Source: an uncultured Gemmatimonadales bacterium (GTDB lineage: Bacteria > Gemmatimonadota > Gemmatimonadetes > Gemmatimonadales > Gemmatimonadaceae). From it: a stretch of DNA of 64,000 bases. The translations under genes were made by a program, and so were the position numbers. Shown piece after piece: positions 15,313-28,034 of the stretch (position 1 is the stretch's first letter; every line of letters starts with the position of its first letter). The stretch covers positions 1,120,001 to 1,184,000 of the forward strand of contig CAWBZV010000003.1 of the NCBI GenBank assembly GCA_963793305.1, read 5' to 3'. The notes under the pieces are model-generated. The model worked only from the letters and a program-made list of their open reading frames with translations. It was not told the DNA's origin and searched no databases.

Positions 15313-17148
15313 ATGTCACGGTTTGCTATCGCGCTGGTACTGACGCTGTTGGGCGCCGGCGGGCTCGCGGCTCAGACGTGTTCGGAACGCCAGACCAAGC
15401 GATCGGACTCGCTGCCGATGCTGAACCGGCCAACCGTATTTATCAGCTCGGATAGCGGCAAAGTCAGCGGTAGTTTGCCGTTCGACGAGCGATTCAACCT
15501 TTCGGGACCTGCGGATTCGTCCCTCGTCGCGGTCGCAGTGCGGTTGATCCGATTGACGCCGGACATCCCCAACGTCGAGGCAGACCCTTGCCGCGACAGT
15601 CTCTTCAACGACCCTCGAGCGACCCGTTGGAATCGCACGGATAAACGGGTCAAAGTTTTCACGGTACTGGTCCGCCCGATCGTGCCAAGCTCGCCGTATG
15701 TGATCCGCGTCGCGACGTTGACGCGTTTGCCGGATTCCGTTATTCGCTCCGCAGCGAGCGCCATAGCCGACAGTATCCGGACGGCGCAGGACTCTGTTGA
15801 GGCGCGAACGGTTCGTGTGGTGGCCAACCTCGTGCCGGCTGACACCCTCTATTCGACCGCCGAACGAGCGGCCTTTGGAGTGGACAGCGGCGTATCCTCG
15901 CGACACTCGACGCCTCACAAGTACGTGGTCACTCAAGCACTATTGCGCGTCGCGAGTTTCCAGTCGGTGCGCACAGATCGGCACAATGACTCGGTGACTC
16001 GCCATGCCGACACGGTAACCAGCCACGGTGACTCGGCTCGGCGCGTTGACTCGGCCCGGCGCCAAACTGATTACCGGACGTTCCAACAGCAGTACCAACA
16101 AGCCCGGCGTGCCCGGGCCGGGGCCATTGAGCAATTGGACGCGGACACTGGTTGGATCCGTATTCGCCTCGATGCGCTGACGCGCCAGATCACACCGTTC
16201 TCATTTCTGTTGTTGCCGAACGATTTTGACGGTGGTCACTATCGGTCCGCAATCATCTTCACGCAAGCACTCCCCGCGCGATTGACTCGAGAGAAGCAGC
16301 GCATCATCGATGGCCAGACGCTCGTGGAGAACGCGGACGACACCGTCGAGTCGCTTGGCCATGCCGCGATTCTGCATAGTGCGGCCATCACGCCGATCCA
16401 GGGCCGGCTGGCGATGCTCGATGCCGATGTTCGTGACCAATACGAGTTGTTCACGATCGCGAGGCGTGATCCGCTGGTCCGAGAGCGGTTGCGTGGGGAT
16501 ACCGCACGGCTCGACTCAGCGATGACGATCGACACATCGCTCATTCGACTCGTGTCCCAAGAACGCGAGACCTACGGCGCGCTGGCCAAATCCCTCGACG
16601 CGCTCGACTCGGCGGCCCTGCAGTACGCTCGCACGGTCGTGCCGCGACTCAAGCCAGATTCGCTGGCGTTCTTCGCCACGACGGATCACCAGTTCGATGA
16701 TCGAGCGTCGCTCTACATCAGCGCTGACATTGGCGTGCTCGTCGCCACCCCCATCTTCCAGCGCTTCTCGGGCACGGTCGTCACGCCGTACGTCGGGGTG
16801 AATATTTACCCGTTGGCGGTGAACAAGAAGGCGCCGTTGAGCGATTGCGAGCAGATGCCGCAGTGCCGGTTCAAGCGCTTCTCGGCCACGATCGGAGTCA
16901 CGACCAGTAGCATCGGTCGGACCGGTGTTCGCACGGATCTCTTTGGCCAACACAGTCTGTATGTCGGCGTCGGCTACCGCTGGAACAGTTACTTGCGGGC
17001 CACCGCCGGCTCGCTGATGTATCAGACCTATTCGACCGACGGTGCGCATACGCTCCGCTTCAACATGACACCGGCGCTCTCGCTGTCGTTCGATTGGGAT
17101 GTTAAGAGCACATTGGGCGGCATAGCTTCACTCCTGGGCGGTGGTTGA
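15313..17148 (+). CDS. exported hypothetical protein: helical middle region, C-terminal outer-membrane beta-barrel-like region
   Basis: Signal peptide MSRFAIALVLTLLGAGGLAA. C-terminal alternating beta strands (YISADIGV, PYVGVNIY, LYVGVGYRW, PALSLSFDWD). Confidence 0.7.
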   Translation: MSRFAIALVLTLLGAGGLAAQTCSERQTKRSDSLPMLNRPTVFISSDSGKVSGSLPFDERFNLSGPADSSLVAVAVRLIRLTPDIPNVEADPCRDSLFNDPRATRWNRTDKRVKVFTVLVRPIVPSSPYVIRVATLTRLPDSVIRSAASAIADSIRTAQDSVEARTVRVVANLVPADTLYSTAERAAFGVDSGVSSRHSTPHKYVVTQALLRVASFQSVRTDRHNDSVTRHADTVTSHGDSARRVDSARRQTDYRTFQQQYQQARRARAGAIEQLDADTGWIRIRLDALTRQITPFSFLLLPNDFDGGHYRSAIIFTQALPARLTREKQRIIDGQTLVENADDTVESLGHAAILHSAAITPIQGRLAMLDADVRDQYELFTIARRDPLVRERLRGDTARLDSAMTIDTSLIRLVSQERETYGALAKSLDALDSAALQYARTVVPRLKPDSLAFFATTDHQFDDRASLYISADIGVLVATPIFQRFSGTVVTPYVGVNIYPLAVNKKAPLSDCEQMPQCRFKRFSATIGVTTSSIGRTGVRTDLFGQHSLYVGVGYRWNSYLRATAGSLMYQTYSTDGAHTLRFNMTPALSLSFDWDVKSTLGGIASLLGGG

Positions 17149-17492
17149 TGTCGGCGGCCATGAACAACATCACCTTGCTCGACACGCAGCCAGTCCCCGC
17201 GATCCCCATTCCGGGCCCCGTGACGCTCTCGTTCACCGCTACCGCGTGGACGCCGACGCAACGCGTCAACGTGTCATACTCGATCATGCAGACCGCGAAC
17301 GTCACGCTTGCTGACAGCACAGGCCTGGATAGCGTCGCGATTCCGGATCGCGCGACTCCCGTCACACTCCAGACCCGATTCCGGCTCAAGCAGGGGACGA
17401 CCGCGCCGCAAAGCTTTGAAGTCCATGCCGAGGTGTTCGACAACAAGGTGCGGCAGTTCGAGGTCGTCTGGATCATCGGGGTGAAACCGTGA
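17145..17492 (+). CDS. small beta-rich hypothetical protein (Ig-like?)
   Basis: 115-aa ORF overlapping both neighbours by 4 bp, Thr/Val-rich strands. Confidence 0.6.
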   Translation: MMSAAMNNITLLDTQPVPAIPIPGPVTLSFTATAWTPTQRVNVSYSIMQTANVTLADSTGLDSVAIPDRATPVTLQTRFRLKQGTTAPQSFEVHAEVFDNKVRQFEVVWIIGVKP

Positions 17493-18139
17493 AGCGCTTC
17501 GTGCTCGCCTTAGGCGTGCTCCTCGCATGTCACGACTCGGTCGATCCAGGAGCGACCGGCCTGACCTCTCTGGGCGCGGCGCCCGACACGGTGCTCGCCA
17601 ATGCCGTCAGCGAGACGAAACTGAGCGCGACGGTCGACCCGCATTCGATAGCGCCCTGGTCCGTCACGTTCACCTCGACGGCCGGTGTGTTCGCGGAAAC
17701 CGGGACACAAGCGGCCACGCAAGGTGCGGATCCCACGGGCCTGGCGACTGTCTACTTGCGCGCACCACGCGATTCGGCGACAGCCACGGTCACCGCGACG
17801 GTTGACACCGTGGTGCGGAGCATGACCGTGTATTTCGCGCTCGCGTCCGTCGACTCGATCACACTCGTGCCAGCCGCGCTCCATGTCCCGGACTCGGTTC
17901 AGGTCACGGCCTACCTGAGAAGCAACGTCGGCTTCCCGAGTCCGGGCGTGCTTCTCAAGTTCACAGCGACCGGGTCGGCGGGCGACTCAACCGGTCAGTT
18001 CACGCCCGTTTTGCCGAGCGATACGACGAATGTTGTGAACGTCCAATACTACCGGGATTCAACCTACGCGGGGACTGTGACAATTGTCGCGACAGCGCCC
18101 AACGGCGTCGTCGGACGTGCTGTCATCACCGTGCCATAG
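17489..18139 (+). CDS. lipoprotein with bacterial Ig-like (Big_1/invasin-type) domains
   Basis: Lipobox LLAC. PDTVLANAVSETKLSATV, VTFTSTAG, GLATVYL, ATVTATV. Confidence 0.75.
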   Translation: MKRFVLALGVLLACHDSVDPGATGLTSLGAAPDTVLANAVSETKLSATVDPHSIAPWSVTFTSTAGVFAETGTQAATQGADPTGLATVYLRAPRDSATATVTATVDTVVRSMTVYFALASVDSITLVPAALHVPDSVQVTAYLRSNVGFPSPGVLLKFTATGSAGDSTGQFTPVLPSDTTNVVNVQYYRDSTYAGTVTIVATAPNGVVGRAVITVP

Positions 18140-18216
18140 GCGATTTCGCCTAGGCGGTCTGGCGCAGTGCCGCCGGTGATTGTGGACGGCGTGTTCAACA
18201 ATCGCCAAGTTGGCGG

Positions 18217-21200
18217 ATGTCCCTTCGCCATCCTGCCGCACTGATGCTTGTCGGGTGCCTGGTCGCGGCAGCGACCAGCTGTAGGCGAGAGGCTAACGAC
18301 GCCGACAGCCTCGTTCGAGCGCTGGCGAGCCTGCACATGCCACGGTCCACGGTCGCCCGATTATCAATCGCCAGCCGCTACATCCGATGTGACTCCTTGG
18401 AGGCGGGTGAGTGTCGGCACCCGCCAGCGTTTGACGGAGCACTCCTCGCTCGCGTCGGCGCGATCGCCGCGCGCGCAGCCACACGCCTTCACGACCACTA
18501 TGACCCTGACGCGGTCCATGCGGCCGCACTCATCGACCTGCTGTGGGCTGACCCCGCGGGAAATTCTCTGCGTCGGGCCATCTCATCTCTTCGGTTGGTG
18601 GCGCAAGTGTCGACGCACCCCGTTCCATTGCTGACCGATCTCGCGGCCGCGCTGCTTCTACGCGACGCGCACACCGGATCAGCGAGCGATGTGGTCGAGG
18701 CAGTCGATGTAGCCCAGCGCGCGGTTGAGCTGGATTCCCTGAATGCCGCAGCGAGGTTCGATCTGGCGCTTGCGCTCGATCGACTGGGCCTCGCCGCACA
18801 AGCTGGTCGTGCATGGAGAGATTACGTGCGTATCGATATTTCGTCACCGTGGGCCGACGAAGCGCGCGCTGGTGTGAGGCGCTGCGACAGTATCGCCGCT
18901 CCAGCCCATGACACGGCCAGCTCGCCGCAGGTCGCTCGTGTCACGGGCTGGGACTCCGTGCTTGGCGCGTGGGGAACCGCGGTGTCACAGAACAGCACCG
19001 CGCATGCCAAGGCTTCGTTGGGGCGGGCAAGTCAGCTCGCGAAGCTCGTGCAACGGTCCGGAGACGCATCGCTCGCGGAGGCAGTCCGCGGCATGCGAGC
19101 CAGTAGCGGCCGGCGCCGGCTCGCGCTGGCGCGAGGTTACCAAGCATACGCGCAGGGCCGACGAGCATTCTTGGCAGGGGATATGGATGGGGCGCGTCGA
19201 TGGCTGATGGTCGCTGCTCGCGCATCGTCAGGATCCGTGCTCGCTGCATGGGCATCGGTATATCTCGCCGCCACCGCATTGCAACTCGGTGACACCGCTT
19301 CGGCGTTCCGGCTTCTCGGCCCGGTCGTGCGGAGTGTTGACGCAGCACGGTATCCGGCGCTCGCGGGGCAAATGCACTGGACCCGGGCCGTCGTGCTCAT
19401 CCGCATTGGTCAGTACGAACACGGCCTGGTTGAGTCGCAGGTGGCCGAGCGGTCCTTCGCACGCGCCGGCGAACGGGAGAATCAGGGCGCCGTCGCATTT
19501 CTCCAGAGTACCGCGTATATCGCGCTCGGGAACCTCACGGCCGCGGCCCAGTCGCTCCGACGGACGTTACTCGTCCTCAGGTCCGATCGCCGCTCTGTCT
19601 TCCTCCACAATGTCCTCTTGGTATGGGCCGAGATGGAGTCTAACGGGCCCGTACGTGCGGCGAAGCGAATCGTGGACGAGGACATTGCGGTTGCCGACCT
19701 GTCCGGACTGCCGGTCGCGACCGTGGGAGCGCGGACCCTTCGCGCCCGCCTCCGCGCCCTGGAGAGAGATACGGCCGGTGCGGTGGCCGACTTGGATTCC
19801 GCGCGCACGCTCATCGCGTTTGTGCCGGCCGGACCTCTGTACCGCTGGCTAGCAGCGAACCTCGCCATTGCGCAGGCATCTCTCCGAACGAAACGTCGAG
19901 CCAGGGATGCGTCGCTCGACTCGGCGGTGAGCTTTTTCCAGGAGATCCACAGCGCCGCGCTCGAGCCGCAAGCGCTGGCTATCAGGGCCGAAGCGCGACT
20001 GATGCTCGGCGATACGGCTGACGGTGCCGCGGATCTCCGGCAGGCGCTGACCTTGCTCGCTGCGCAAGGAGAAGGGGTCGCCAGTGCGCCGCTCCGAGTG
20101 ACCTTTCTCGACGCCGCGCGACGGACCATCGATCGGCTCGTGCTACTCCGAATGCAACAGCCAGCAGAAGCGCTGGCGATACTGGAGCGCGGGCGGGCAG
20201 CGGTAGCGTCTGCCGTGCCGGACCCACAACGCGCCGCTGACGAGCCGATCCGATCACCGTCCGGTGTGGTCGTACTCGACTACTCGGTGATCGGCGACAC
20301 CGTGTTGAGCTGGACGGTGCGCGACACGCTCGTGCGTCTGCACCGTTGGACCGTCCGAAGCGGCGCGCTGTTCATGACCATTGCGAGGGTGGTGGCCGCC
20401 ATGGAGTCGCGCTCAAACGGAACGCAGGTCGAGCGCGACCTCTCCGATCTCTATCGGCAACTCGTTGCGCCGGTCGAGGCGGACTTGGGGCGTCGCGACA
20501 CATCGCTCATGATTGTCGCGGACGGAGAGTTGGCGGCAGTCCCGTTCGCGGCGTTACGCGATGGGAACGGGCATTATCTGGTCGAGTCACGCCTGCTGCG
20601 TTTCTCGAACAGCTTGCGTGACGTCACCGCGCCGCGCTCGACATCTCGCTCCCAGCCGTCAGCAGTCGTGCTCATTGGCGATCCGGCGTTTGCGGCGAAC
20701 CTCCACCCCGAGCTCGAGCGTCTTTCGGGCGCGCGTGCCGAAGTCGACTCCATCCAGGCGATCTATCCGACGGCGCGCGTGCTTCGCGATGCCGCGGCGG
20801 ATCGCCGAGCAGTGGAAGCCGCTCTGCGAGGCTCGACCGTGGTGCACTTCGCCGGCCATGCGCGCATCGACGATGATGAGCCGGAGCGATCCACGCTCGT
20901 TCTGGCGGGGACGACGCCAACCGCGGATCTCGATGCGGCTAGCATCGCGACCCAGCGCTTTTCGCGTGCCCCTCTCATCGTGCTATCCGCTTGCGAAACC
21001 GCTGTTCCACGCGCCGGCCGGTCCGGAGGGCTGGCGAGCCTCACCGGGGCTTTCTTGCGGGCCGGCGCAATCGGCGTCGTCGGGAGTTTGTGGCGCGTGG
21101 ACGACCACGACACGCAACCGCTCATGACTGCGCTGCACCGCGCCTATTCGCAATCTCGCGATGGCGCTGTCGCGCTTCGCGCGGCCCAATTGCAATTGGT

Positions 21201-21267
21201 GCACGGATCAGCGCCGGCGCTCCGAGCACCGATGGCCTGGGCCGCATTTCGCTACACCGGGTCCTGA
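18217..21267 (+). CDS. exported TPR-CHAT (caspase-like) protease
   Basis: N-terminal signal or lipobox (LVGC or ATSC), TPR-like helices, CHAT motifs IVADGELAAVPFAAL, VHFAGHA (His), VLSACET (Cys), FLRAGA..VVGSLWRVDD, WAAF. Confidence 0.92.
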   Translation: MSLRHPAALMLVGCLVAAATSCRREANDADSLVRALASLHMPRSTVARLSIASRYIRCDSLEAGECRHPPAFDGALLARVGAIAARAATRLHDHYDPDAVHAAALIDLLWADPAGNSLRRAISSLRLVAQVSTHPVPLLTDLAAALLLRDAHTGSASDVVEAVDVAQRAVELDSLNAAARFDLALALDRLGLAAQAGRAWRDYVRIDISSPWADEARAGVRRCDSIAAPAHDTASSPQVARVTGWDSVLGAWGTAVSQNSTAHAKASLGRASQLAKLVQRSGDASLAEAVRGMRASSGRRRLALARGYQAYAQGRRAFLAGDMDGARRWLMVAARASSGSVLAAWASVYLAATALQLGDTASAFRLLGPVVRSVDAARYPALAGQMHWTRAVVLIRIGQYEHGLVESQVAERSFARAGERENQGAVAFLQSTAYIALGNLTAAAQSLRRTLLVLRSDRRSVFLHNVLLVWAEMESNGPVRAAKRIVDEDIAVADLSGLPVATVGARTLRARLRALERDTAGAVADLDSARTLIAFVPAGPLYRWLAANLAIAQASLRTKRRARDASLDSAVSFFQEIHSAALEPQALAIRAEARLMLGDTADGAADLRQALTLLAAQGEGVASAPLRVTFLDAARRTIDRLVLLRMQQPAEALAILERGRAAVASAVPDPQRAADEPIRSPSGVVVLDYSVIGDTVLSWTVRDTLVRLHRWTVRSGALFMTIARVVAAMESRSNGTQVERDLSDLYRQLVAPVEADLGRRDTSLMIVADGELAAVPFAALRDGNGHYLVESRLLRFSNSLRDVTAPRSTSRSQPSAVVLIGDPAFAANLHPELERLSGARAEVDSIQAIYPTARVLRDAAADRRAVEAALRGSTVVHFAGHARIDDDEPERSTLVLAGTTPTADLDAASIATQRFSRAPLIVLSACETAVPRAGRSGGLASLTGAFLRAGAIGVVGSLWRVDDHDTQPLMTALHRAYSQSRDGAVALRAAQLQLVHGSAPALRAPMAWAAFRYTGS

Positions 21268-21301
21268 CGTTCCTCATCCATCCCTGAAGGGAGAGTATCC
21301 C

Positions 21302-22342
21302 ATGAGTACGCCATACACGCTGACAGTCACGGTCGCCGGGCTATGCCTGGCGGCTGCCGATGAGCAGGCGACATCGAACGACAACTTGCTGCACGTGCTG
21401 ATGATGCGATACGACCCGCAAAACCAGAATAACATGCAGCACTTCGCGCGCCTGTTGTTCGATGCCGACTATTTAACCGGCGTGGATTCGGGCACGCAGA
21501 CGCTCACGTGCGTCGATCTGTACAACGGAGCGCTCGACTTGGATGTCGGCCCGACAGCCATTGACTTTCAGGCGTCGCCTCCGACCGGTATCGCCAACCT
21601 CAGCACCCTGGCGAGCGTCGCCACCTTAGATCCTACGTACGTGACCGGCAATTCGAATCACATCGCGAACGCGCGACTCACGTTACGGAAAGGTGCATTT
21701 GGCGTGCAAGGTAAGACCGCGAAGTTCGACACGACCGCTGGGCCACAGGACCTCAGCCACTACATGGTCTGGACAATGACCGGTGGTATGACCAAGGACC
21801 AAAACGCGAATAAACAGGACTGCTTGACACTGACATTCCAACAGATGGAGTCGGACAAGAACGATCCGCCAGCGCCGGCCGCGATCCAGCTGTGCCCGAA
21901 GGGAGGCCAGATCAACCTGTACTTCATGAATGCCATGCCCATGGAAATTCCGTCGACCGACGTCCCTGCCGATCCGCAGTCCACCTGGAATCCAGGGGAT
22001 GAGGCGATGCATTTCGATGGCTACTTCAGTGCCTTCCCCGGTACCCCGATGGCGATCATCCAGAAGAGCACACCGAAGCTCCAAAACAAAACGGATCTCC
22101 CCGGCGACAGTCCGCTCGCGGGCTGGAAAGGCGGTTGCGTGTTCTTGACGCGGTCCTCGGGCGCCAAGCTATTCGACGTGCCTTCACCGTTCATCGGTGA
22201 CAACGAGGAGACGATTCTTACGCCGGTCTGCATTCACGCGATTGTGGATGTCGGCGTCACGAACCCAAAGCCGCCAAGCCCGTCGTTACTTGAATCTGCA
22301 GGCCATTCCAGTCACCAGGGGCACGGAAGTCCCGCCATGTGA
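21302..22342 (+). CDS. hypothetical protein downstream of the CHAT protease
   Basis: RBS-like GGGAGAG before ATG 21302. About 346 aa, beta-rich, six Cys, no recognisable family. Confidence 0.7.
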   Translation: MSTPYTLTVTVAGLCLAAADEQATSNDNLLHVLMMRYDPQNQNNMQHFARLLFDADYLTGVDSGTQTLTCVDLYNGALDLDVGPTAIDFQASPPTGIANLSTLASVATLDPTYVTGNSNHIANARLTLRKGAFGVQGKTAKFDTTAGPQDLSHYMVWTMTGGMTKDQNANKQDCLTLTFQQMESDKNDPPAPAAIQLCPKGGQINLYFMNAMPMEIPSTDVPADPQSTWNPGDEAMHFDGYFSAFPGTPMAIIQKSTPKLQNKTDLPGDSPLAGWKGGCVFLTRSSGAKLFDVPSPFIGDNEETILTPVCIHAIVDVGVTNPKPPSPSLLESAGHSSHQGHGSPAM

Positions 22343-23099
22343 TGCCGATGGAAGCCGGTAGCCGGGACATGAGCGCCCGGCTGCCGGCGGACGTGAAGAA
22401 CGCGACGTCGTGGTGCGCGGCCGCAATCCGAGCTGCCTCCATCCAGGCGCCGAGATCGACGGCCTCGCGCCCCGCGATCACGGCGGCCAGGGGCGCGCCG
22501 AGCGCGAGGAGGGAATCGCGCCCATGAGCGTCACGGGTCGTGTCCACCATCTGCCGAAAAATTTGAGCGACCGAGGCTGATCCGGGCACCGCATCGAGCA
22601 AGACTGCGATATCGGCAGCGCTACGCGCCGCGCGTGCATCGCTCGCTCGGATTTCGAGTATGAGGTCCGTGAGATGTGCGCCCAGACGTATCGCCCGAGC
22701 GCTGTCAGTCAGCGGCTCAGCCGTACCCCGTGTCGTAGCCCATGGCGCTCCGTTCCAATCGGATGGAAGCGTCGATTCGCTCGCCAACGACACAGCAAAT
22801 CGCCGGGGGTCTGCGGAGGGCGCCGACGCAGGGTACATGCGAGCGAGCGACACGATGGTGATGATCGCAACGATACTGGCGGCGATGGCCAGACCAGCCC
22901 TGCGCCACCGGAGCGAGCGCGCCGGCAGTGCTTTGGCCCGGGGCCCCTCCCCGTGGATCACGCCCGCCGCATCAACGAACGCCTCGAGCGCCACATCAGA
23001 GGTCCCGAGGCGCGCGAGGATCTCTTCGCGTTGACGAGCATCGAGCCGCCCATCAAGCAGCGCTGCGATCCGTTCCGCGTCATCCAAGGGATCCGTCAT
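22257..23099 (-). CDS. putative membrane-anchored anti-sigma factor
   Basis: N-terminal DAERIAALLDGRLDARQREEILARL resembles a zf-HC2 anti-sigma domain but lacks the HxxxCxxC ligands. One TM helix after RWRR, then an extracytoplasmic domain. Directly follows the ECF sigma gene. Confidence 0.72.
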   Translation of the reverse strand: MTDPLDDAERIAALLDGRLDARQREEILARLGTSDVALEAFVDAAGVIHGEGPRAKALPARSLRWRRAGLAIAASIVAIITIVSLARMYPASAPSADPRRFAVSLASESTLPSDWNGAPWATTRGTAEPLTDSARAIRLGAHLTDLILEIRASDARAARSAADIAVLLDAVPGSASVAQIFRQMVDTTRDAHGRDSLLALGAPLAAVIAGREAVDLGAWMEAARIAAAHHDVAFFTSAGSRALMSRLPASIGITWRDFRAPGDWNGLQIQVTTGLAALGS

Positions 23100-23154
23100 G
23101 CGATGGGTTCTCCTGGCATATCCACGAAGATTGGATGATCCCGCGCCCAGTCTT

Positions 23155-23922
23155 TCACTGCTCGAGCTCGCTTAACATTGTCTGGACGCGCTCGCGCGAG
23201 ACACCCGACAGCTCGACGCAACGACGTATATCAGCTAACGCGCGCTCGATACGGCGATAGAGCGGCTTCTGCGGCATACCAAGAGCTCGCGAAATCTCGG
23301 CAACCGTCATGCCCTCCCAGAAGCGCATTCGGATGATCGCCCGATCCTCGCTGGACAGGCGGTCGAGCGCAGCCTCTACCGCCTGTTCGGCATGACGCCG
23401 ATCATCGTCCCATGCGGCTAGCTCGCTCGCATCCGCCGCGGGTACCTCGGCAAGCGGCGCTGATCCGACCTCGAGGGGCCGCATCGGATCGCGGAGGGGT
23501 AACTGCGAAAGTATCGCCGCCAGATCCCGATCGGACATCGCGGTATCTCCCCGCGTCCGCAAGACCTCGGCCGCCTGATCGAGCCGGTGCCCATCGCGGT
23601 AGACCAAGGTCTCGAGTTGGACCGCGATCCGGCCACGCCGGCACGCCGCCGCGGAGGGGCGCCAGCGGCCCCAGCGCTGGACGCGGTAGTCGCGGGCCAG
23701 CATCGCTATGACGACCGTGAGGTAGGTGCCGAGCGCGCTCTCGCCTCGGAACTTACCGAGAATCGCATAGTCGTTCTCGACGAGCTTGAGCTTGATCCAC
23801 GAGCCGAAATCGGCGGTGTCGTCTCCAGTCATCCCGTGACGCCGGCAGATCGCGCCCGCGATCCGCTCGATGGCGCCGAGGTGACTCAAGAATAGCGCTT
23901 CGAGCTGTTGCCGCGCCGCCAT
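23155..23922 (-). CDS. ECF-type RNA polymerase sigma factor
   Basis: Region 2 (DDTADF..LKLVENDYAILGKFRGESALGTYL) and region 4 (LSSEDRAIIRMRFWEGMTVAEISRAL). Confidence 0.9.
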   Translation of the reverse strand: MAARQQLEALFLSHLGAIERIAGAICRRHGMTGDDTADFGSWIKLKLVENDYAILGKFRGESALGTYLTVVIAMLARDYRVQRWGRWRPSAAACRRGRIAVQLETLVYRDGHRLDQAAEVLRTRGDTAMSDRDLAAILSQLPLRDPMRPLEVGSAPLAEVPAADASELAAWDDDRRHAEQAVEAALDRLSSEDRAIIRMRFWEGMTVAEISRALGMPQKPLYRRIERALADIRRCVELSGVSRERVQTMLSELEQ

Positions 23923-24083
23923 GAGGCAAAAGCTACAATCGGGTGGACTTCGCCGCCGATAGGTCGCGATCATGGCAGCGATCATAGCCGGACCTGCGCA
24001 GGCTGTCCTTAAGCGATCGCTAAATCATTCTCAAATGTTCTCGCTATTCGCGAAACCGCGACCGAGCGTCCGTCTAATGAGCT

Positions 24084-24659
24084 GTGACCCTACCTCTCGT
24101 CATTTCAGTCCTGCAAGCGCTGGATCTCGCCGCCATGGTGGCCGATGGTGCCGGTCGGGAGGTGCGAGAGACCGCGCGACTCGGCCGGCTACTCGCTGAA
24201 GACGCGGACAGCTCCGATGTGCGCGCTCGCCTTTTGCAACTCGTTCGCAAACGGTTAACACGGAATGGCGTTGGCGCACCGGTCACGGTTGAAACGCGAC
24301 GAGGGGTGTACACGCTGTTGGCGGTTCCGTGGCCCCAGCCGGATGGTGTGGTCACCCTCGGCATCGGCCTCGCGACCGTGAGCGGGAATCTCGCGGTCGA
24401 CCCCAGTGTCAGGCAGCGGTTCGGCCTCACCCCCCGCGAAAGCGACGTCGCGTCACGCCTCGCAGCCGGCGCGTCGAGCCGGGAGGTGGCTGAGAGTCTC
24501 GGCATGAGCGTGCATACCGCGCGGAGACACACGGAGCGCGTCTTGCAGAAATGCAATGTGCGGCGGAGGGCCGGGGTTGCCGCGGCGCTCTACGCGGCGT
24601 GGTTGCCGGAGCCAGTGGCTACGACGATACCTCGCTCGTCGCCAGCGATGCGTCCGTGA
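24084..24659 (+). CDS. LuxR-type HTH regulator without a receiver domain
   Basis: FGLTPRESDVASRLAAGASSREVAESLGMSVHTARRHTERVLQK. Start uncertain. Confidence 0.85.
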   Translation: MTLPLVISVLQALDLAAMVADGAGREVRETARLGRLLAEDADSSDVRARLLQLVRKRLTRNGVGAPVTVETRRGVYTLLAVPWPQPDGVVTLGIGLATVSGNLAVDPSVRQRFGLTPRESDVASRLAAGASSREVAESLGMSVHTARRHTERVLQKCNVRRRAGVAAALYAAWLPEPVATTIPRSSPAMRP

Positions 24660-25070: not shown

Positions 25071-26143
25071 CTAGGGGACAGACAGTCCCAAACTTTTCAG
25101 CAGTGAAAGAGCGAGCTTGCTCAGGTCGACCTCGTCCATGTTGGCGAGAAGTACGACACCCGTCTCGCGATCGAGATCGAGGACGACATAAGTACTGGTT
25201 CCCTGCTGGCCACCGGAGTGGCCAACGCAATGGACGCACGTGCTGTCACCGATCCCCCAGCCAAGGCCGTACCCGGTCACCGAGTCGCGCGTGGTGCGTT
25301 GCGGGGTCCACATCAGCGTGCGAGTCGAGCGCCGCATCAGCTTATCGTGATAGAGCGCCGACTCGAACTTGGCCAGATCGGTGGCCGACGACAGCCAGCC
25401 GCCGCCCGGCACCTTGTAGCTCGCGTCGAGGAAATCCGCGTTCTGAACCTGCTCGGTCGAGTCTCTATGGTAGAAGCGCGTCCGATGGCGAATGATCGCA
25501 AACCGGTCGTCGGCCCGCGTCTCGGTCATTCCCGCTGGCACAAACACATTTTCCCGCACGGCGTCCACGTATGAGGTGCCCGCCGCGCCGGCGATGGCGC
25601 ATCCGACGAGCGTGTAGCCCATCGTCGAGTAGTTGAATCTGGTGCCCGGCTGCGCGACCAACGTGTCGGACGCGAAGAACGCGATGCCACCCGCGATCCC
25701 ATCGGTGAAGTGCTTCGTGTTCCCGCCCTCGAGGTCATCCGCGGCCTGGACTTATAGTGCCGAATCCCGCCAAGGTGGCCGAGCAGCTCGCGCGTCGTGA
25801 TGGGCCACGGCTTCTCGGGGAAGCCCGGGCAGTATCGCTGGATCGGCGCGTCGAGATCCAATTTGCCGCGCTCCCACAGGACCATCGCCTCGGTGGCCGT
25901 AATTGGTTTGGAAACCGATCCGAGACGGAAGAGCGTATGCGCCGTCACCGGAACGGCATTCTCGAGGTCCGCCATCCCATAGCCCTTGGCCCACACCGGA
26001 TTGCCGCGGACCACGGCCGCCACCGCGATACCCGGTGCGTGAGTCGTCGCCATGAACTTCGCGATCGCGCTGTCGACGCGCGCCGGCTGGGCCGACGCGA
26101 CTCCCGAGAGCGCGAGGAACGCCAGTACGGGGAGTTGTCGCAT
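25071..26143 (-). pseudogene. serine hydrolase (beta-lactamase/PBP family), frameshifted near 25745
   Basis: Signal peptide, FRLGSVSK, LLGHLGGIRHY; then FNYSTMGY and GHSGGQQG in another frame. Confidence 0.85.
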
Positions 26144-26172
26144 GACCGACAATCTACAGTCTAATATTAGAG

Positions 26173-28034
26173 GTGCGCTCAGTAGCGCTCATGCTCTGTG
26201 TGTGTGCCGCGACGGCCGCCGGTCAAGCGGGCGGCACGCTCGTGACCACGATCGTCGAGCGGGAGACGCACGCTCCGCTTGGCTTTAGCACGGTCACGGT
26301 GACGGCGGTCGGGCGAAGCGACTCGGTCGCTCGATTCACGGACGACGCCGGCCAGACGCTGTTTGCCCCACTGGCACCCGGCCGATATCGGATTCGGGCG
26401 CGCGAGCTCGGATTCGCGCCCGCCGATACGGTCGTCGACTTCGCCGACAATGTCCCGCACTGGGGTGTCGTGCTCACGCTGCACGCGATACCGCAGCAGT
26501 TGGAGACGGTCGACGTGCGTGAGCAGGGCGTCTGCCGGCAACCGGGCATACCGGACGAGATCGCGTCGCAGATTCACGAGAACGCCCAATCGCGCGCGTC
26601 TGCTCGCCGCCGCGTATCCGTACTATTACCAGCGCGAGGAGCACATCGCGAACGCGTACGACACGGCGACGTACGACAGTCGAAGCTACGTCACGTACCG
26701 CGTCGGTCACTGGTGCATGCGACGCGCGATCCCCATGGCGCGCGAGTGGTGGTCGTCGTCGCTGCCGCACCTTCAGGATCTCGCCGATAGCGGATTTCAG
26801 CGCGTCCACTGTTTTGGTATGCGGGCGCGATAGCTCCGGCGTCCGAATCGATGTCGAGCCGTTCGTCACGCTCGGCGACGCCGACGTCGCGGCGCGGTTC
26901 TATCTCGATCCGGAGCACTTCGTCGTCCGTCGCGCGACGTTTCGGGTGACCCACACCGAGCGCATCGACCCGACGCTCGAGTCGCAGGTCGTCGAGACGC
27001 GATATCGCGAGTTGGCTCCGCTGGTCGCGGTGCCCGATTCGATCGTCTCGACGACCAAAATGCGGGCGCCATGGCAGGGAGGGACACGCACGATCGTCGA
27101 GCAGGATCGGCTGATCACCGTCTGGGACGTGACCGGCGTGATGGCGGATAGCTCGGGCGGTAAGGCGGTGGCTGCCTTGCTCGACTCCGCCAGCACCGAC
27201 GCTCCGCCAGGGCAGTCGACGCGCAACGTCCACGGCCGGTTGATCGCCGCCGACAGCGCGCCGCTCGTCGGCGCGCATGTCGAGATCCTGGGGCTGCACA
27301 TGGCGGCGGTCGCGGGCGACAGCGGGCAGTTCGACCTCCATGACGTCCCAATCAGCGAGCAGACGTTGTTCATTCGCCGGATCGGGTACCGGCCGACGAC
27401 GGCCACGCTGCCTGCCACGACGCGCCGCGTCACGATCCGGATTCCGGCGTCGAGCGTCGTGACGTTGGATCCCGTGGTGGTGCAGGCGCAGCGTACGGCG
27501 GCCGCGTATCACCAGATCGGGTTCGATTTACGCCGGAAGACGGAGCGCGGGTTCTTCCTCGACGCCGATCAGATCAAGCGTCTGGGCGCATCCAAGTTGT
27601 TCGAGCTGGCCGCGCGCGCGCCCTGGATACGATACGTCCACCCCGGTGGGGTGCAGGCGGCGTCCCCTGCACCGTCACTGCGCGCTTTGACTCCCCAGCA
27701 GGGGCTGACGCGGGCCGGCGCCGGTCACGATGAAGACGCGCTGGGGCCGCACATCGCGTCCGATTCGTTGCGGGTCGAAGGCGATGTGTCGTGCCTGGGT
27801 ACGGGCTGCGCTCCGTGCCTCAGCTACTTTGCCGACGGGCAGATGATCCGCGACGGCGAATCCATTCATCCGTCGCTCACATTCCGCGACATCGAGGCGC
27901 AGTACCCGCCGGACCGAATCGCGGCGCTTGAGGTGTATGAGCCGTACGCGGTCCCATCGGCGATCAGCGCGCAGGGCGGCGCCGGATGCGCGGTGATCAT
28001 GATCTGGACGAAGCGATATCTGGGGATCGAGTAG
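26173..28034 (+). pseudogene. exported protein with carboxypeptidase-regulatory-like (beta-sandwich) domains, frameshifted near 26590 and 26820
   Basis: TDDAGQTLFAPLAPGRYRIRARELGF and GDSGQFDLHDVP..RRIGYRP repeats; C-terminal IAALEVY...CAVIMIWTK. Spread over three frames. Confidence 0.7.

Follow-up and report, generated by a model that had tools for sequence, protein, structure and literature searches.

A block of eight genes at 15313..24659 of a 64,000-nucleotide stretch of DNA from an uncultured Gemmatimonadales bacterium (contig CAWBZV010000003.1, positions 1,120,001 to 1,184,000; the whole stretch is called the window) had been put forward, in a preliminary description, as a signalling or defence system built around a CHAT protease and a sigma factor of the extracytoplasmic function (ECF) group. 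All eight open reading frames are present, with positions and orientations as described. Comparison with related loci, which carry L numbers below, indicates that the conserved core is four genes: the ECF sigma factor, a membrane anti-sigma factor, a lipoprotein that combines tetratricopeptide repeats (TPR) with a CHAT domain, and a 346-residue protein that we call X.

Protease, anti-sigma and sigma genes

The protease gene (18217..21267, + strand) encodes 1016 residues laid out as an N-terminal TPR-like scaffold, a TPR superhelix and a CHAT domain (Pfam PF12770, residues 741-1015, E 2e-57). The two motifs on which the assignment had been based hold up: VHFAGHA contains the catalytic His877 (20845-20847) and VLSACET the catalytic Cys926 (20992-20994), and both residues, together with Asp963, are invariant in 49/49 aligned CHAT domains (53 were found and four near-duplicates left out). 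As read by pattern and inspection, the N-terminus is of the lipoprotein type, with Cys22 at 18280-18282; a permissive lipobox fits 24 of 31 CHAT relatives of the window type (clade A, defined below), and most of the others have a hydrophobic leader. Among solved structures, the CHAT profile matches DdvA of Myxococcus xanthus best (8rot_B, 991 residues; E 2e-21), with Csx29 chains (1e-12 to 6e-8) and separase below it. A profile of the full-length protein matches 8rot in two stretches, the better one in the CHAT domain; the scaffold-only profile gave no match to 8rot. Against the Csx29 family model NF041237, the window protein scores 18.6 bits, where the cut-off is 300. By CHAT profile match, DdvA/DdvS thus replaces the Csx29/Csx30 pair, named in the preliminary description, as the nearest known logic. 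Two more CHAT-domain genes lie elsewhere in this genome (G000), at C3:110537-111367 and C12:144896-145660.

The anti-sigma gene (22257..23099, - strand; 280 residues) encodes a three-helix anti-sigma domain (residues 4-48) whose fold matches MucA and RsiW. Residues 1-60 contain no Cys, and the zinc-binding (CHCC) ligands, present in a sister clade, are absent from the window protein. A single membrane helix (residues 64-87; 22839-22910) is followed by an extended linker that carries Trp120-x-x-x-Arg124-Gly125 (Arg codon 22728-22730) and by an all-helical outer domain (residues 132-279). Of 54 window-type anti-sigma factors, 53 have this Arg in the linker past the membrane helix, as do all 26 sister-type ones, although the outer domains of the two types are unrelated; this Arg is likely to mark a cut site, as predicted from its conservation. 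One related anti-sigma domain, in L132 (8085-9590, - strand), is fused to a P-loop nucleoside-triphosphatase-like region instead of a membrane helix; that gene adjoins the sigma gene and lies near a weak CHAT match.

The sigma gene (23155..23922, - strand) scores 58.5 bits against TIGR02937 (cut-off 42.9). Its open frame extends to 23985, but translation probably starts at the ATG at 23922, giving 255 residues, because relatives begin there. Between its regions 2 and 4, all family members keep an insertion of about 60 residues (WGRWRPSAAA...), which found no match among solved structures.

Conservation and a shared promoter motif

Among 401 genomes of the phylum, the sigma family with this insertion occurs in 41, with 48 matches. 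We fetched all 48 sigma loci and mapped profiles of each window gene onto them. The 16 window-type (clade A) loci contain the anti-sigma factor with its helical outer domain in every case, the scaffold-TPR-CHAT protease in 14 and X in 11, with a further weak X match in L124 (E 1e-4) and an X-like gene seen by eye in L129. The LuxR gene and each gene of the trio upstream of the protease are found in one of the 16, the window itself. Clade B and outliers make up the remaining 32 loci, several of which lie on short contigs; a related anti-sigma domain is encoded in 25 of them, TPR-CHAT in 19-21 and X in none. Metagenome loci show the same pattern, in several gene orders, and three sister-clade loci (L035, L137 and L138) hold the anti-sigma domain, membrane helix, TPRs and CHAT domain in one frame, the architecture of DdvA. 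The eight-gene system as first proposed thus shrinks to its co-conserved part, sigma, anti-sigma, CHAT and X, and loses the upstream trio, seen in 1 of the 48 loci. Extra proteases recur next to the cassette. Two X paralogues share a locus in L054, L065 and L089, and L070 carries tandem sigma copies.

Word counts upstream of the sigma genes revealed GGAC-N12-TTTC in 14 of 54 cases (0.16 expected), and a matrix search found the motif in 19 of 54. Its opposite-strand form, GGAAA-N16-[AG]TCTAA, points away from the sigma gene and resembles ECF -35 and -10 elements. A matrix for this form was trained on 16 sites, with the window and its closest relative L001 excluded, and a refined matrix was likewise built without window sites. 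In 55 held-out loci, the motif precedes the anti-sigma gene in 34; the reverse strand gave 0-1 such sites and shuffled sequences about 1. The predicted promoter of the window anti-sigma gene (23131..23160, - strand; score 15.9 with the refined matrix, which also gave the next score) lies 31 nucleotides before the ATG, and its -35 part overlaps the sigma stop codon. A second predicted promoter (24048..24077, + strand) scores 22.9, the highest value in the 5.7-Mb genome, and lies 6 nucleotides before the GTG of the LuxR-family gene (24084..24659, + strand; 191 residues), the transcript of which, on this spacing, is likely to be leaderless. From the linkage we infer that the sigma factor of the cassette would read this motif. 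Other genes behind the motif in relatives encode S8 and S53 proteases, an M1 peptidase, a kinase and exported proteins. The third-best match in the genome (19.5; G000:C2:309686, - strand) lies about 110 nucleotides before a Ser/Thr-kinase-like gene, and a kinase is likewise found behind the motif in L047.

The LuxR product is a helix-turn-helix regulator (GerE, E 1e-9); it, the sigma factor and the anti-sigma factor with its one membrane helix had all been named correctly beforehand. The LuxR gene is indeed divergent from the sigma gene; it stands next to it, among the loci compared, only in the window and in L001 (90% identical), and is likely to be a local target of the sigma factor in this lineage rather than a component of the system. 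A LuxR paralogue with 34% identity lies elsewhere in the genome, at C3:621997-622452.

Protein X

Protein X (21302..22342, + strand; start ATG 21302) belongs to a family of 3,843 clusters at 50% identity (profile search, E<=0.001). Across the best 150 of these clusters plus three earlier matches (n=153), His47 is kept in 153, Cys310 in 152, His237 in 146 and Cys15 in 134. The structure, predicted with confidence, is mostly beta (predicted local distance difference test score, pLDDT, 81.6; predicted template-modelling score, pTM, 0.85). Structure searches with this model found no match, which does not in itself prove a new fold, and the window protein matched nothing in Pfam or PADLOC. A variable loop of 18-65 residues precedes a Cys-bearing C-terminal strand, and a tail of about 8 residues follows the last Cys. 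The window protein has no signal peptide. Twin-arginine signals occur in 7 of the 153 proteins, the X of L001 carries such a signal, and export signals were recognized by eye in L125 and L081, so that some members work outside the cytoplasm.

The distribution of X follows that of the protease. X was found in only 12 of the 401 genomes, all of which also have a clade A sigma factor, and it adjoins a window-type CHAT gene in 15 of 15 matches, 11 at sigma loci and 4 without a sigma gene nearby. When metagenome loci are counted, CHAT is present in 27 of 33 X loci; five of the loci without it lie on contigs that are short or cut, which leaves L005 as a genuine exception. Over 25 loci, X distances correlate more strongly with those of CHAT (r 0.73; 0.44 after the sigma signal is removed) than with those of sigma (r 0.53) or of the anti-sigma outer domain (r 0.57; 0.18 after removal), all values that kinship inflates. 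X also diverges very fast. These comparisons make the protease, and not the sigma factor, the partner to which X is dedicated; X most likely regulates CHAT, as inhibitor, chaperone or bait, or is its second substrate. A bolder proposal, which we consider unlikely, is that X has a new fold and founds a class of proteins under caspase control, in which His47, His237 and Cys310, with Cys15, would form a metal or catalytic site capped by the C-terminal Cys strand and flipped by a cut in the hypervariable loop, made by CHAT or by a foreign protease. Were that so, a sigma switch and an unnamed effector or tripwire family of nearly 4,000 clusters would be linked through a single exported caspase-like enzyme. 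As a large unnamed family with invariant His and Cys residues, for which no structural match was found, X is a good target for structure determination.

A candidate split proteolytic switch and its alternatives

Gene linkage, the intact His-Cys dyad, the anti-sigma-type fold, the linker Arg, the sister-clade fusions and the promoter motif lead us to read the cassette, with a probability of roughly 60%, as a split DdvA/DdvS-like regulated-proteolysis switch that spans the envelope, in which a membrane-anchored CHAT would serve as the site-1 protease on a separate anti-sigma factor. In such a switch, the anti-sigma factor would hold the sigma factor at the membrane until CHAT responds to an envelope cue, probably a protein that the TPR part detects. 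CHAT would then cut the anti-sigma factor at Arg124-Gly125 and shed the helical outer domain, an RseP-type protease would complete the degradation, and the sigma factor would be freed. It would transcribe its own anti-sigma gene, as a reset, together with lineage-specific targets: LuxR here and, in relatives, X as well as secreted proteases, kinases and surface proteins. DdvA forms without the outer domain are degraded by RseP, according to the part of PMC11506125 on which we draw, and M50 protease genes are present in this genome. The earlier suggestion that CHAT would free the sigma factor by cutting the anti-sigma factor is supported, as a prediction, by the co-conservation, fusions, linker Arg and promoter motif.

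The likeness to DdvA/DdvS (PDB 8rot, 8rw5), as far as that part of PMC11506125 describes it, comprises an ECF sigma factor with an adjoining single-pass anti-sigma factor bearing a three-helix N-terminal domain; an outward-facing TPR-CHAT part with a His-Cys dyad and of about equal size, the outward orientation being predicted for the window protein; and a linker that CHAT is proposed to cut before RseP acts. Whereas DdvA is a fusion, the window CHAT is a separate lipoprotein gene on the strand opposite to the anti-sigma gene. The window anti-sigma factor also differs in lacking zinc ligands and in bearing a helical outer domain of its own; the cassette further includes X, its sigma factor has the 60-residue insertion, no defence island was found and the phylum is another one, DdvA-like proteins being reported, in the same part of that source, only in Myxococcota and one Comamonas. 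The type III-E Craspase (Csx29, Csx30 and CASP-sigma) is alike, in what the portion of PMC10028731 used here states, in that TPR-CHAT is encoded apart from its anti-sigma substrate and the ECF sigma factor has sites in its own locus. It differs in that the window lacks Cas7-11 and CRISPR, and in that the periplasm is the predicted site of both the window protease and its substrate. No cas match was found among the window proteins and no array at the locus; a search for CRISPR-like repeat families at 14-26 kb was negative, and there is no Cas1 in this 92%-complete genome, in keeping with the CRISPR independence originally claimed. Neither X nor the anti-sigma factor matched Csx30 by profile or fold, a result that does not exclude likeness. 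The cassette is thus not a member of the DdvA class, from which fusion and zinc binding separate it, nor a Craspase.

In the DegS/RseA/RseP system, the site-1 enzyme is an HtrA serine protease. By analogy, this system and AlgW/MucA would share with the cassette a separate site-1 protease, the same anti-sigma N-terminal fold and sigma-driven resynthesis of the anti-sigma factor; here, by contrast, the site-1 cut would fall to a cysteine protease of the caspase clan that serves a single sigma factor. Group ECF54 resembles the cassette in having an ECF sigma gene near TPR-CHAT and subtilase genes, and differs in being confined to Actinobacteria and without an anti-sigma factor, in the part of PMC7826278 drawn on here. 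Membership in ECF54 was rejected, as the relatives are Gemmatimonadota and a cognate anti-sigma gene is present in 16/16 loci. Our literature searches turned up no account of the split cassette or of protein X, a point on which table S7 of the DdvA report and later ECF groups could bear. In the natural split form, the enzyme and its substrate are soluble domains separate from each other, and both the cut site (Arg124) and a promoter for a reporter are predicted, so that the cleavage step can be tested in the tube; the unproven cleavage step of Myxococcus DdvA would become directly testable. If the proposed switch exists, the use of caspase-clan enzymes as site-1 proteases in bacterial envelope signalling would extend far past the myxobacteria.

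Several observations weigh against this switch. Many loci are close kin, and the counts given above overstate their independence. L005 has sigma, anti-sigma and X but no CHAT within 10 kb, and the four X genes without a sigma gene nearby lie directly behind a clade A CHAT gene. In the window, CHAT sits behind three unrelated genes, with no convincing motif site before CHAT, X or the trio. A 19-residue hydropathy scan did not flag the CHAT N-terminus, the export call coming from pattern and inspection, and X, mostly devoid of export signals, may not share a compartment with CHAT. Finally, D2151, the separase residue that recognizes the P1 Arg in the portion of PMC9729208 consulted, aligns to Gln967 of the window CHAT in a variable column, which leaves Arg specificity of CHAT without structural support; the linker Arg could be structural or another protease's site.

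A doubtful though conceivable alternative is a phage or predator alarm like DdvA/DdvS, in which CHAT would detect the passage of a foreign protein through the envelope and the sigma factor would induce defence genes located elsewhere. The nearest studied system regulates an island of cyclic-oligonucleotide-based antiphage signalling system (CBASS) and CRISPR genes, as stated in the part of PMC11506125 used above, and the patchy distribution of the sigma family and the fast divergence of X would fit a role in conflict. PADLOC, however, matched none of the eight window proteins and, among 89 neighbouring open reading frames, returned only generic matches to proteases, a methylase and helix-turn-helix proteins (three subtilases, two C14 caspases, a second CHAT, a methylase, an amylase and helix-turn-helix domains). 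No CBASS or CRISPR genes were found among the neighbours or predicted targets, the absence of Cas1 argues in the same direction, and the predicted targets are proteases, kinases, regulators and surface proteins. Nothing tied the cassette to phage defence, and the defence label given to it at first is not borne out.

It is also possible, but improbable, that CHAT and X are output: a general site-1 protease would free the sigma factor, which would drive the pair, and CHAT would process X to a form active as a toxin or signal. No pair is tighter than CHAT and X (15/15), which are duplicated without sigma, X offers its long variable loop before the short Cys-bearing strand, and the motif, which in relatives precedes X in 4 of 34 cases, stands before X or a CHAT-X operon in L001, L031, L053 and L165. 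Yet sister-clade loci have sigma, an Arg-bearing anti-sigma factor and CHAT with X in 0 of 32, and it is there that anti-sigma-CHAT fusions occur; Arg/Lys-Gly appears in the X loop in 37 of 152 proteins against 24 in shuffles, and most X proteins lack an export signal.

Upstream trio and flanking sequence

The three genes upstream of CHAT had been described as exported. This stands for the 611-residue protein (g611; 15313..17148, + strand), which has a signal-like N-terminus, and for the 216-residue protein (17489..18139, + strand), which has a lipobox; the 115-residue protein between them (17145..17492, + strand) showed no signal peptide or hydrophobic peak, no family match and no match in the fetched loci, so that neither it nor the window X is evidently exported. 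The beta-barrel and Ig-like labels are weaker, with matches under cut-off in both cases: E 0.03 for g611, the C-terminal part of which is rich in beta strands, and E 2e-4 (Invasin_D3/Big_1) for the lipoprotein. One distant relative of g611 was found in the 400 other genomes, followed by an Ig-like lipoprotein that shares a short likeness with the window lipoprotein (14/34); no CHAT-cassette gene lies within the 18 kb fetched around it. From this gene content, the trio looks like a module of its own, not a conserved partner of the cassette. That the full eight genes form one system, with the trio as sensors activating CHAT in this lineage, is very unlikely: the trio does run head to tail into CHAT with a 77-nucleotide gap, and in L002, L128 and L165 this slot is filled by other exported proteins, so that a variable input slot is possible, but no gene of the trio was found in the 47 other sigma loci, the sole g611 relative keeps company with its lipoprotein and no cassette gene, and the closest relative, L001, differs in arrangement. 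Unrelated exported proteins with beta-strand-rich ends adjoin the cassette at L165:12180-13594 (- strand), L128:3575-4552, L032:3531-5021 and L033:11532-13094; the one in L165 heads a CHAT-X operon behind the promoter motif, recalling the position of g611.

To the right of the block, a serine-hydrolase/beta-lactamase-family gene (25071-26152, - strand) lies in overlapping frames (25526-26152 and 25071-25661) and is apparently frameshifted; its 3' part matches Pfam Beta-lactamase. An exported protein with carboxypeptidase-regulatory-like domains (26173-28034, + strand) is apparently split over two frames. The right-hand flank of the window is 90-93% identical in nucleotides to that of L001, in which about 5.4 kb of extra genes (L001:2203-7881) separate two flanks that adjoin each other in the window; two of these genes resemble a Hen1/Pnkp RNA-repair pair.

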